Of a DNA stretch of 64,000 nucleotides, positions 12,975 to 15,673 are shown in pieces. A program made the translations under genes and the position numbers. The DNA is from an uncultured delta proteobacterium (GTDB taxonomy: Bacteria > Myxococcota_A > UBA9160 > UBA6930). The notes under the pieces were generated by a model. That model was not told the origin of the DNA and made no database searches. It saw nothing but the letters and a program-made list of their open reading frames with translations. Where the stretch lies: assembly GCA_963722885.1 (NCBI GenBank), contig CAVROS010000001.1, forward strand, positions 176,235 through 240,234. The letters are read 5' to 3'. Within the stretch, counting starts at the first letter, position 1. Each line of letters begins with the position of its first letter.

Positions 12975-13661
12975 CTAGTTTTCGCGAGATCGATCCAGCG
13001 CTGCCTTGAGGTCTTCCCAGACCAGGCGCCGGTTCTGCTCGGTGTACTGGCGCAATACGAAGGCTGGGTGGAAGGTCGGCATCACCGGAATTCCGCGGTA
13101 CTCGTGCCAGATCCCGCGTACCTTGGTGATCGCGATGTCGCGTCCGAGCAGCAGGCTCGAGGCGGGTTTGCCCAGTGTGACGATGACCCGGGGCTGGACG
13201 GCGTCGATCTGACCGTCCAGAAAGGGGCGGCAGGCAGCCACCTCCTTGGCCTGAGGATTCCTGTTTCCCGGCGGTCGGCACTTGACGATGTTGCAGATGT
13301 AGACCTCGCTTCGCGAGATCCCGAGCCCCTTCTCGATCATCCGGGTCAGCAGCTCACCGGCGCGGCCCACGAAGGGCACTCCGCGCAGATCCTCCTGCTC
13401 GCCGGGCCCCTCTCCGATGAAGAGCAGGTTCGCGTGCGGATTCCCGTCGCCGAACACGATCTGGGTTCGCCCCTCACCGAGGCCGCAGCGGGTGCATTCC
13501 CCGAGCTCGGCGCGAACCGCCTCCAGTGTCCGGCTCTCCGCTGCGGGCTTCGCCGCTTCCGCGGTCGCCGGAATCCGGTCGACTCCCTCCTCGACGAGCT
13601 CGCCCAACGCAGCCCGAGCCGCCGCAAGGACCTCCGCCGTTTCCCGCTTCAGGTCTCCCAT
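12975..13661 (-). CDS. Uracil-DNA glycosylase family 4
   Basis: CTRC [4Fe-4S] ligands, GEGPG, PFVGRAG, KCRPP, FHPA. Confidence 0.95.
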   Translation of the reverse strand: MGDLKRETAEVLAAARAALGELVEEGVDRIPATAEAAKPAAESRTLEAVRAELGECTRCGLGEGRTQIVFGDGNPHANLLFIGEGPGEQEDLRGVPFVGRAGELLTRMIEKGLGISRSEVYICNIVKCRPPGNRNPQAKEVAACRPFLDGQIDAVQPRVIVTLGKPASSLLLGRDIAITKVRGIWHEYRGIPVMPTFHPAFVLRQYTEQNRRLVWEDLKAALDRSREN

Positions 13662-15673
13662 CAGCTCGACTCTCGCTCCTGGCTGGTAGCTTGGGTGTCC
13701 AGCGGCTCACCCGTCCCCGCCTCGATCGTACCGTGGCGCTGGAGCTCGATCTTGTCGAGGAGCTCGAACTCGAAGCCGGGATCATTGGCCTCGTCGTGAC
13801 AGGATCCGCAGATCTGAAGAATCACGCAGGAATCGCACTTGTCGCCCAGTGCGATGATGCTTCCGGTCTCCAGGCCCTCGGTTTCGACGTGCTTGCCGCC
13901 GGGGCCGTGGCAGGATTCGCAGCCGACGACAGCCAGGTCGGGATGCTCCGCGGGCTTGCCGTCGCTGGGAAAGCCGCCGGGCCTGCCGAAGGCCGTGGTG
14001 TGGCAGCGCAGGCATTCGGGGTCCTCCGTCTCGGCGGGGGCCTCGAGCTTCTCGATCGCCGCTGCGTGGGGCTGCTTCGACCAGGTTGCGAACTCCTCCT
14101 CGTGGCAGGACTCGCAGGCCTCCGAGCCGGTGTATTCGGCGAAGCTCGGCAACAGGTTCTCCCGAGGCTTCTGCCGTTCTTCGAGAATCCTGCGCCGCTC
14201 CTCCAGAGAGAGGTCCGCCAGCTGGAGGTTCGCCTCGTGAGAGACGAGGGGCAGGAAGGTCGCGTAGTCGAAGCCGAGCGAGTGCTTCCGATTGTGACAG
14301 GTCGTGCAGAGCTCCTCGTAGTCGGGCTCCACGGGGAGTTCCTCGGCCGGTTTCTCGGTCAGGTGGCCGCCGCCGCGGCCGTGGCAGGTCTCGCACCCGA
14401 CGTTCTCGAGATGGACGGCGGGATCCGCCTCCGAGAAGCCCCCGGGCTCCCCCCAGCCGACCACGTGACACCCCACGCACTCGGGGTCGCGATCGGAGCC
14501 GTGGCGGACCAGGGTGTCGAAGGCACGGGCGTGGTTGGTGAGCAGCCACGTCTCGTTCTCCCGCTCGTGGCAGACCTCGCAGAACTCGTTGCCGCTATAA
14601 CCCGTCGCGTGAAGCAGCATGGGGGCCTCATCCCCGGCGATCCTGGCCAGGCGCATTCGCATCAGCGGTGGCTCCCGCCCAGCCCGCCATCCCTCGGTGC
14701 GCGATGCGATGGAACCGTCCCTATCGATCAGGAAGGTGACCGGTACCCCGGCCATCACGCCGTAGGCGGTACGGATCGAGCGGTCGGGGTCCAGCAGGAC
14801 CGGGAAGAAATCGAGCTGATCCTGCTCGAGCTGCTCGCGGACCCCGATGCTGCGATCCATCGCCAGCACCGCCACCAGCACCGGACGCTTCGCCTCGGGG
14901 ATCTCGGCCAGCGCCTCCCTGAAGAAGCGAAGCGCGTGGTGACAGTGCGGGCAGGTGGGCAGGAAGAACACCAACACCACCGGCTTTCCCCGCTGCGCGG
15001 CCAGCTCGAATCGCTCGCCCCCGTCGAGTCGCGTGGCGCTGAACAGCGGCGCCTCGGGGCGCTTTCCCAGCACCGAGACGGCGGCCGCATTCTCGATTGG
15101 CAGTCGCAGCCACTCCCGGATCTGCGATTCGACCACGGCAGGCGGGTTCTCCCCGTCGCTCGGGAAGCTCGAGCTGCCGTCGATCAGGTACCCGCTGGCG
15201 TCGGCAACCACCAGGGCCGCCGGCGCGCGAATGTTCAGGAGACCCGCCAGCCCCGCACCGGTGTCGTAGAGCACGGGAATTTCGATGCCGAGCTCCTCGA
15301 CGAAGCTCCTGGCGTCCTCACGGCTGCCGCGAGTGGCGATGCCGACGATGTCGAAGTTGTGGCCGCTGCGCTCCGCGGCCACGCTCGTCACCGCCCTGCC
15401 GACCATGCGGGCCTCCCCCACCTCGGGGTCGAAGAAGAACAGCAGCAGACGCTTCCCGATCAGCTGGGAGAACGAGATGCGCTCGCCATCGACCCCGTAC
15501 CCCTCGTAGGCTGGGAGAGGTCGCTCCCGACGCAGGGGCCTGGAGGCGGCGGGCGGAGCCGGCTCCCGGTGGATCTCTCTGGCTCGCGCGGTCTCGTCGG
15601 GCTGTTGCGAGCACCCGGGAACCAGGAGGAGCAAGGCCAGCGCAGCTGCGATCGGAACTGCCAGAGTACGCAC
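13661..15673 (-). CDS. Probable lipoprotein with two redoxin/thioredoxin-fold domains and eight c-type heme motifs
   Basis: Signal peptide ending LLLLVPGC; first redoxin domain lacks CxxC, second has CPHC; then CEVCH, CVGCH, CETCH, CTTCH, CESCH, CLRCH, CESCH, CGSCH. Confidence 0.88.
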   Translation of the reverse strand: MRTLAVPIAAALALLLLVPGCSQQPDETARAREIHREPAPPAASRPLRRERPLPAYEGYGVDGERISFSQLIGKRLLLFFFDPEVGEARMVGRAVTSVAAERSGHNFDIVGIATRGSREDARSFVEELGIEIPVLYDTGAGLAGLLNIRAPAALVVADASGYLIDGSSSFPSDGENPPAVVESQIREWLRLPIENAAAVSVLGKRPEAPLFSATRLDGGERFELAAQRGKPVVLVFFLPTCPHCHHALRFFREALAEIPEAKRPVLVAVLAMDRSIGVREQLEQDQLDFFPVLLDPDRSIRTAYGVMAGVPVTFLIDRDGSIASRTEGWRAGREPPLMRMRLARIAGDEAPMLLHATGYSGNEFCEVCHERENETWLLTNHARAFDTLVRHGSDRDPECVGCHVVGWGEPGGFSEADPAVHLENVGCETCHGRGGGHLTEKPAEELPVEPDYEELCTTCHNRKHSLGFDYATFLPLVSHEANLQLADLSLEERRRILEERQKPRENLLPSFAEYTGSEACESCHEEEFATWSKQPHAAAIEKLEAPAETEDPECLRCHTTAFGRPGGFPSDGKPAEHPDLAVVGCESCHGPGGKHVETEGLETGSIIALGDKCDSCVILQICGSCHDEANDPGFEFELLDKIELQRHGTIEAGTGEPLDTQATSQERESS

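Follow-up and report, generated by a model that had tools for sequence, protein, structure and literature searches.

A putative lipoprotein joining two thioredoxin folds to eight predicted heme sites in an uncultured order of Myxococcota, and its possible part in heme-wired thiol chemistry

Domains of the redoxin-octaheme protein

We analysed a 64,000-nucleotide stretch of contig CAVROS010000001.1 (positions 176,235 to 240,234; assembly GCA_963722885.1) from an uncultured delta proteobacterium of the Myxococcota, referred to below as the window, and within it one gene on the reverse strand whose product fuses two thioredoxin folds to eight predicted c-type heme sites. A preliminary description, made from the letters alone, had seen in this product a lipobox-like signal, a redoxin domain without CxxC, a TlpA/ResA-like domain with CPHC, and two internally similar tetraheme units of the c554 type. 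All four were recovered, and they can be delimited as follows.

13661..15673 (-): whole gene, 670 codons plus stop, GTG start
15611..15673 (-): signal peptide, residues 1-21, with lipobox-like VPGC and Cys21 (from the sequence and the conservation of Cys21)
15089..15532 (-): domain 1, Cys-less thioredoxin/redoxin fold, residues ~48-195 (the second Pfam stretch)
14639..15076 (-): domain 2, TlpA/ResA-fold thioredoxin, residues ~200-345 (Pfam residues 207-326; Foldseek)
14942..14953 (-): putative active-site CPHC, C241 and C244, then H245 (44/44 sequences, down to 25% identity)
14741..14746 (-): V310-P311, the thioredoxin-fold cis-Pro position (P311 in 44/44 sequences)
14174..14608 (-): tetraheme module 1, c554-like, residues 356-500, hemes 1-4 at CxxCH motifs starting at C365, C399, C427 and C456 (VIA-align; phmmer against the PDB)
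13694..14161 (-): tetraheme module 2, residues 505-660, hemes 5-8 at CxxCH motifs starting at C520, C554, C585 and C622 (from its likeness to module 1)
13826..13837 (-): C613-D-S-C616, an extra Cys pair (C616 invariant, C613 in at least 90% of 44 sequences)

The open reading frame (ORF) extends over 13661..15775 on the minus strand and would encode 704 amino acids (aa); the GTG at 15673 gives 670 aa instead. We accepted the start at 15673 because the aligned N-termini of homologues (MRTL or VRSL) coincide with it, and because a 15-base deletion at 15726, present in contigs of three DNA runs (X1, X3 and X7) from three studies, falls inside the upstream extension. The extension from 15673 up to 15775 is probably upstream non-coding sequence, and the stretch between the neighbouring DnaJ-domain gene and the GTG start varies, as the 15-base indel shows. 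The gene contains no in-frame TGA. The hydrophobic N-terminal stretch of the product terminates as ...LLLLVPGC, and at least 90% of 20 aligned homologues share its Cys21; since Pro at -2 is atypical for a lipobox, we regard the protein as likely, and no more firmly than that, to be a lipoprotein.

The redoxin half scored 88.1 bits with Pfam AhpC-TSA (PF00578; cut-off 26) and 68.4 bits with Redoxin (PF08534; cut-off 26.6), each over two stretches, and these profile scores place it in the TlpA-like thioredoxin superfamily. Domain 1 carries an NCBIfam TlpA match at residues 45-136 and is modelled with a predicted local distance difference test (pLDDT) score above 90. Its FFFDPEVGEA aligns to FFLPTCPHC of domain 2, so that PEVGEA, which has no cysteine, stands at the CxxC position. 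The full-length AlphaFold2 model (pLDDT 87.2; predicted template modelling score, pTM, 0.82) suggests that the domains are held in a fixed arrangement. The best Foldseek matches in the PDB all fall on domain 2: they are headed by ResA (1st9/1su9) and Chlorobium DsbE (3gl3), with a template modelling (TM) score to target of 0.81-0.90, and continue with Geobacter and Bacillus thiol-disulfide oxidoreductases, pneumococcal Etrx2, CcmG and TlpA. Among them is 3c71, an engineered ResA with a CPHC motif. The NCBIfam equivalogs for ResA (58.5 against a cut-off of 170), DsbE (TIGR00385; 20.9 against 123.15), TlpA (17.8 against 230) and StoA (34.7 against 210) all remained below threshold. Pfam DSBA and Thioredoxin_4 gave no listed match at E values up to 1; judged by its profiles and predicted neighbours, domain 2 is not a member of the DsbA family, with which it has only CPHC in common, and its structural neighbours are of the ResA type.

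Conservation was read from an alignment of 44 sequences with identities down to 25%. C241, C244, D295 and P311 were invariant, and Val preceded the cis-Pro in 33 sequences, all close relatives among them, while the dipeptide within the motif differed among relatives (CGGC, CEAC, CSEC, CPNC, CPYC). The likeness to extracytoplasmic TlpA-like thioredoxins (Bacillus subtilis ResA, CcmG/DsbE, Bradyrhizobium japonicum TlpA, pneumococcal Etrx) thus comprises the fold (TM to target 0.74-0.90, at 19-30% identity), a CxxC at the start of a helix, the cis-Pro and the extracytoplasmic location, together with the lipid anchor in the case of Etrx. Those proteins, however, are single-domain and are recharged by CcdA/DsbD, whereas the present one has an additional Cys-less copy of the fold and eight fused, predicted heme sites, and its motif is CPHC without the acidic residue that ResA has after the motif.

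AhpC-TSA is the top-scoring of the Pfam redoxin models and several sources label homologues 'peroxiredoxin', both of which would suit a cytochrome-fed thiol peroxidase, whose redoxin domain reduces peroxides and is recharged by the hemes. The peroxidatic motif of peroxiredoxins is PxxxT/SxxC, however, and FFLPTCPHC does not conform to it, the Thr directly preceding C241. The peroxiredoxins Bcp1 and AhpE also rank below ResA and DsbE in Foldseek, the NCBIfam thiol peroxidase model reached 21.5 bits against a cut-off of 140, and the source names are automatic. We therefore consider a peroxidase very improbable.

The cytochrome half consists of two modules that are 38% identical over 123 aa (E 3e-25), and the tetraheme halves therefore arose through internal duplication. 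Pfam Cytochrome_C554 (PF13435) matched two stretches, with 99.1 bits against a cut-off of 20.8. Seven of the eight CxxCH motifs are invariant in the alignment and the sixth is kept in at least 90% of the sequences; His381, His479, His536 and His595 are likewise invariant. The eight motifs can thus be read as conserved, predicted c-type heme sites. VIA-align placed cytochrome c554 (1bvb_A) on module 1 with Z 10.6 (133 aligned residues, 31% identity), well above all else, while module 2 found NrfA-type heme cores only, and these weakly (Z ~4.5). The nearest solved chains by sequence (phmmer) were OcwA (6i5b) and c554. Folded alone, the octaheme domain was modelled more poorly (pLDDT 75.9, pTM 0.56) than the same region in the full-length model. 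Both the profile and the predicted tetraheme fold place the modules in the cytochrome c554 family.

Closer assignments within that family scored below their cut-offs: the Nitrosomonas c554 CycA equivalog (NF043010) gave 76.3 bits against 400, and the ExtKL/MccSep model (NF040886) 16.8 against 250. The best NCBIfam match, at 182.9 bits against 275, was NF041198, a UshA-like (seleno)protein with the same c554-like module at its C-terminus; the match spans only the C-terminal 118 of 519 profile positions and occurs twice, on the heme modules. The c554-like module therefore appears as a portable electron wire that is fused to periplasmic enzymes. Nitrosomonas europaea c554 (1bvb), OcwA and the NrfA/HAO heme cores contain related modules; c554 of Nitrosomonas is a soluble carrier in ammonia oxidation, whereas here the module is duplicated, fused to redoxin domains and supplied with an extra Cys pair before heme 8.

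Family and distribution of the fusion

A word-indexed search returned 1010 proteins at E <= 0.001 among 8000 candidates scored. The 120 best listed homologues were all 624-729 aa long, 53-90% identical to the query over at least 89% of its length, and carried redoxin and c554 Pfam domains. When 50%-identity representatives were searched exhaustively, 126 proteins matched at E <= 1e-30; these comprised full-length members down to ~32% identity, forms of ~470 aa with one redoxin domain, and larger fusions. Among 401 sampled genomes of the phylum, 130 had a match at E <= 1e-30, with exactly one match each, distributed as follows.

Families of the window's order (f1-f10): 62/63 sampled genomes with a match
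Sister family (f11): 13/14 sampled genomes with a match
Five large families: 0/29, 0/34, 0/29, 0/23 and 0/19 with a match

Matches in the other families of the phylum mostly begin at about query residue 200-233 and thus represent the single-redoxin form. The preliminary description had named a consistent separation of homologues into two genes, joined here by an indel, as grounds for abandoning the idea of a fusion; all 120 best listed homologues are instead full length. Because homologues are full length and single copy across the order, the fusion is genuine rather than an indel artefact, and it is a core single-copy gene of this uncultured Myxococcota order. The family is large (more than 1000 sequences) and widely conserved in sediment and soil Myxococcota, and near-identical DNA occurs in contigs of the marine-sediment and salt-marsh runs X1, X3 and X7. 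The habitat labels of runs X2, X4-X6, X8-X19, X21 and X22 carry no weight here.

Three clusters of this architecture in the ESM Atlas, with 84, 460 and 199 members, are named by their Pfam domains only, and database labels for homologues include 'redoxin domain-containing protein' and 'multiheme c-type cytochrome'. None of the curated families (Pfam, NCBIfam) or solved structures covers a redoxin-multiheme fusion, and a full-text literature search, with subscription journals outside its reach, found no paper on such a fusion or on a characterised member. The earlier remark that no characterised protein has this architecture thus held, with no curated family over its cut-off and none in the literature searched. 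Both halves belong to well-known kinds; what is new is a fused heme wire as a dedicated redox partner.

Two further architectures were seen in passing. In P0157 (1082 aa), TPR repeats precede the redoxin-octaheme unit, which hints, from domain content, at protein substrates. A separate Myxococcota cluster of 141 members in the ESM Atlas combines AhpC-TSA with Paired_CXXCH/cytochrome c3 modules (score 0.80); taken as a lead only, it indicates that redoxin-multiheme fusions may have arisen more than once.

The two cysteine pairs

The His directly after CPHC makes CPHCH, formally, a ninth CxxCH. After CPHC or CSHC, 119 of 121 close homologues have His and the remaining two Lys, and CxxCK is a known variant heme motif. 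The genome also encodes Ccm system I: CcmE, CcmF and CcmA are present, along with ORFs that match CcmB and CcmC in size and position. One could accordingly picture a nonaheme cytochrome whose thioredoxin fold is a mere scaffold for a ninth heme. Distant members, however, retain CxxC and the cis-Pro but follow CxxC with L, Q, A, R, K, E, S, M or I, so that the conserved element is CxxC itself and not the subsequent residue. A basic residue after CxxC is moreover usual in TlpA-like proteins, and the model gives domain 2 a normal, ResA-like predicted fold. Given the inconstant His and the family's habitual basic residue, we read CPHC as a putative redox-active Cys pair and give a ninth heme next to no weight.

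The second pair, C613/C616, falls among eight residues that are inserted in module 2 by comparison with module 1, with C616 six residues ahead of the first Cys of the heme 8 motif. The string CxxC-x5-CxxCH was found in 21 of 22 related loci encoding the octaheme form, the exception (L014) being cut by a contig end, and in 0 of 58 loci with a tetraheme module only. We counted 357 distinct sequence contexts of the heme-IV-type motif, which are related sequences and not independent events, by whether a Cys stands nine (-9, as C613) or six (-6, as C616) residues ahead of the motif.

Cys -9 present, Cys -6 present: 120 of 357 contexts
Cys -9 absent, Cys -6 present: 10 of 357 contexts
Cys -9 present, Cys -6 absent: 0 of 357 contexts
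Cys -9 absent, Cys -6 absent: 227 of 357 contexts

The ten contexts with a lone Cys at -6 include P0021, a close relative of 67% identity, and several distant lineages. C616 thus survives the loss of C613, and never the reverse; since the two partners of a structural disulfide should disappear together, C616 is probably not part of one. From this pattern, C616 seems to be important alone, as a heme-proximal nucleophile or a heme ligand.

The same pattern would also suit a protein that acts at the heme itself: an enzyme that reduces or oxidises small sulfur or selenium compounds, with C616 beside the heme or as its axial ligand, with polysulfide, persulfide, thiosulfate/tetrathionate or organic disulfides as substrates, and with thioredoxin domains that only deliver or release sulfur. 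Heme II of c554 is five-coordinate, and it is c554 that module 1 matches; Asn630 of module 2 aligns with His464 of module 1. Octahemes that lack a thioredoxin domain also have the Cys pair, P0210 (303 aa; signal peptide present) being one of them, and the near-identical environmental DNA comes from marine sediment and salt marsh. A precedent exists in MccSep (ExtKL) of Geobacter, which, like TsdA/SoxAX, is a multiheme c-type protein that links heme electrons to S-S chemistry through a Cys placed on a heme or next to it; according to PMC13510729, MccSep cleaves polysulfide S-S bonds at a His/Cys-ligated heme. MccSep, however, contains selenocysteine, lacks a thioredoxin domain and forms a pentaheme tetramer, His/Cys ligation is only a candidate here, and, as reported above, the ExtKL/MccSep model falls far short of its cut-off. 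The missing-ligand argument is weak, as the His464 position is Phe in module 1 of several distant relatives, and no sulfur-metabolism genes lie among the neighbours. The invariant CxxC and cis-Pro, for their part, argue that the thioredoxin domain is itself catalytic. A sulfur enzyme of this kind is in our estimate quite unlikely.

A related idea, that Cys replaces His464 as ligand, was set aside and serves as a lead only: that His stands at +4 in some contexts and Cys at -6 in others is mostly a difference between the two paralogous modules.

Proposed electron flow, genomic setting and meaning

The preliminary description proposed that a heme wire is coupled to thiol-disulfide chemistry. Such a coupling agrees with the invariant CxxC and cis-Pro, with the eight heme motifs and with the heme-proximal Cys, and we consider some form of thiol-heme relay in this protein probable. 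Within that class we favour a heme-wired, membrane-anchored, periplasm-facing thiol/disulfide oxidoreductase that works in the reducing direction, to which we assign a probability of roughly 40%. Electrons would pass one at a time along the eight hemes, between C613/C616 and a partner cytochrome of the periplasm or membrane, and C613/C616 would convert two one-electron steps into one disulfide/dithiol step; C616 might ligate or abut the heme equivalent to the five-coordinate heme II of c554. C613/C616 would then exchange with the CPHC of the thioredoxin domain, and CPHC with the substrate, while the Cys-less domain 1 may hold the substrate or brace the assembly, much as non-catalytic domains of protein disulfide isomerase do. 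Run in the reducing direction, the relay would let respiratory electrons reduce oxidised cysteines of periplasmic proteins without cytoplasmic reduced nicotinamide adenine dinucleotide phosphate (NADPH). Candidate targets would be repair enzymes, apocytochromes and copper-centre assembly factors, or else small disulfides and polysulfides.

Three precedents show electron transfer from heme to sulfur to be feasible, the first of which is MccSep. In Shewanella, the diheme NapB suppresses a dsbD defect, and the authors suggest that NapB reduces CcmG (PMC8782879), which would be a comparable path from a c-type cytochrome to a periplasmic TlpA-like thioredoxin; that path runs in trans and appears as a suppressor effect at raised NapB levels, whereas here the partners are fused in the product of a core gene. 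Mutants without the Mtr multiheme cytochromes have a severe defect in the reduction of DTNB (5,5'-dithiobis(2-nitrobenzoic acid)), a disulfide, according to PMC10986466.

The logic of such a reductase would be that of ferredoxin:thioredoxin reductase, with hemes replacing the iron-sulfur cluster. By analogy, ferredoxin:thioredoxin reductase with thioredoxin, DsbB with DsbA and Ero1 with PDI may be seen as sharing one arrangement, a cofactor beside a Cys pair that exchanges with the CxxC of a thioredoxin fold. There is no relation in sequence or fold to ferredoxin:thioredoxin reductase, DsbB or Ero1, and here the cofactor would be a c-type heme, with carrier and 'reductase' in one polypeptide. 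The narrower version, a heme-based counterpart of ferredoxin:thioredoxin reductase in which C616 stabilises a one-electron intermediate and the hemes make or break the disulfide of the fused thioredoxin, is tentative and in our view rather doubtful. A predicted complex of the octaheme domain (residues 351-660) with the CPHC domain (195-350) had a median score of 0.21 against a mark of 0.32, which speaks neither for nor against it.

The protein is not alone in its genome (6.3 Mb, 90% complete), which contains one DsbD_TM/CcdA protein on another contig, three further TlpA-like redoxins, and a DsbA-like protein that adjoins a weak VKOR match (22.6-23.3 bits against a cut-off of 27.5); a canonical oxidising pair of DsbA-like and VKOR-like proteins thus probably exists. 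ResB and DsbB were not found in this 90%-complete genome, nor, with this query, was a c554-like module elsewhere in it. As possible cytochrome partners it offers 24 ORFs with at least two CxxCH motifs. A role as replacement for missing CcdA/DsbD, Ccm or DsbA/DsbB was rejected, CcdA, Ccm and a DsbA-like protein with a weak VKOR being present; as the canonical systems exist, the protein would be an added route and not a replacement.

Two redoxin-containing frames of the same genome were recorded as side observations: a 570-aa open frame with a rhodanese and a redoxin domain (C24; L097:517-2226), and another that reads through both ribosomal protein L17 and a redoxin domain, with one TAG reported inside the match (C8; L096:1131-2690).

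The relay could also run the other way, as a thiol oxidase: the CPHC disulfide would oxidise substrate dithiols, and a cytochrome or terminal oxidase would receive the electrons by way of the Cys pair and the hemes. The arrangement would resemble DsbA-DsbB or PDI-Ero1, with hemes taking the place of their electron sink. CPHC is the motif of DsbA, which also has Val before its cis-Pro, as most of the aligned sequences do here, and the motif continues as CPHCHHAL, without the acidic residue that follows CxxC in ResA, TlpA and CcmG. DsbB was not found and the VKOR match is sub-threshold, which would leave room for such an oxidase. Against this stand the probable DsbA-like/VKOR-like pair, the membership of the fold in the reductant family TlpA/ResA/CcmG, the variable dipeptide of the motif in relatives, and the usually low potential of bis-His multiheme chains. 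The motif tends to raise the potential (PMC4395160). In sum, the fold family, the heme-to-sulfur precedents and the DsbA-like gene beside a VKOR-like one speak for reduction, the DsbA-type CPHC and the missing acidic residue for oxidation, and we hold an oxidase to be unlikely, though a serious alternative.

Several observations weigh against the reductase that we favour. The same CPHC that marks DsbA raised the potential of AfTrx3 by +66 mV, where DsbA lies at -89 to -124 mV (PMC4395160), and a raised potential fits an oxidant as well as a reductant. With CcdA/DsbD_TM and three TlpA-like redoxins in the genome, a reducing route is not missing; the earlier proposal that the fused hemes, and not DsbD/CcdA, recharge the thioredoxin therefore survives as one of two possible electron directions, in a genome that has CcdA. 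Octahemes of the P0210 type share the CxxC before heme 8, which is thus no hallmark of the fusion. No partner or substrate gene was found among the neighbours in the window and 22 related loci, which are housekeeping genes only, and the shared order of Hsp70-like, DnaJ-domain, thiolase/OB-fold, UDG and PurE genes is lost in distant loci. Support from RNA is weak: only 0.06 of sampled words were present in the metatranscriptome run X20, whose contigs (mostly 90-95% alike) extend over the UDG, DnaJ-like and Hsp70-like genes but reach only the 3' end of the target, at depth 0-1.7. One 169-nt contig spans the junction between the target and the UDG gene, yet X20 establishes neither expression nor an operon. 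A role as redox sensor, also raised in the preliminary description, drew no support, as no conserved output domain or regulator was seen.

The neighbourhood was described by all-against-all ORF clustering of the window and the 22 related loci, together with Pfam scans. The adjoining gene is the following.

12975..13661 (-): UDG-superfamily gene, downstream (Pfam UDG, 130.7 bits; its ATG overlaps the target's stop as ATGA)

Given this overlap, the UDG gene is probably co-transcribed with the target, which has a UDG homologue on its downstream side in 16 of the 22 related loci. Other neighbours in the window are genes for a DnaJ-domain protein (present in 13/22 loci), an Hsp70-like protein, PurE, a zinc alcohol dehydrogenase, an L24-like protein and a VWA protein. 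An upstream insertion contains a thiolase in 13/22 loci and an OB-fold protein in 11/22. Distant loci have different neighbours: RsgA GTPase, MerR regulators, or an acyltransferase with a 791-aa protein of no Pfam family. The neighbourhood thus represents the gene order of the lineage and does not look like a functional operon.

Further features of these loci were noted in their own right. The conserved pairing of a gene for a periplasmic redox protein with one for a DNA-repair enzyme is odd. In two distant genomes (L021:4603-9206 and L022:4562-9212) the acyltransferase and the 791-aa protein (no Pfam match) appear to precede the single-redoxin octaheme form, and stop-to-start overlaps between the genes of L022 point to a possible operon there. 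The Hsp70-like gene of the window, at 16304..18329 (-), is split into two overlapping ORFs by a break near 17571, with Pfam HSP70 profile positions 1-250 and 303-553 in different frames. The contigs of X1, X3 and X7, from three studies, all lack one base at 17571, and the gene is intact in relatives (~677 aa), so that an error in the assembly, or a strain variant of it, probably explains the break. A ribosomal L24/KOW-like gene at 10778..11110 (+) stands alone between a 322-aa unannotated ORF and the alcohol dehydrogenase, outside a ribosomal operon. Positions 2001..6000 of the window have a G+C content (GC) of 0.56-0.57, against 0.63-0.73 elsewhere in the window, and a higher GC skew.

Two sources of power are generally assumed for thiol chemistry in the periplasm: cytoplasmic thioredoxin, acting by way of DsbD/CcdA, and quinones, acting by way of DsbB/VKOR. 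A thioredoxin fused to eight hemes would instead link disulfide chemistry directly to cytochrome electron transfer. If the proposal is true, a whole order would have a periplasmic disulfide reductase (or oxidase) powered by the respiratory chain, independent of NADPH/CcdA and of DsbB/VKOR, and this would be a third, previously unrecognised way to energise the thiol chemistry of the envelope. The protein would also offer a natural system, in one polypeptide, for studying how one-electron hemes drive two-electron S-S chemistry. As this is a core gene of an abundant uncultured lineage, its direction and substrate, once settled, would annotate many genomes.

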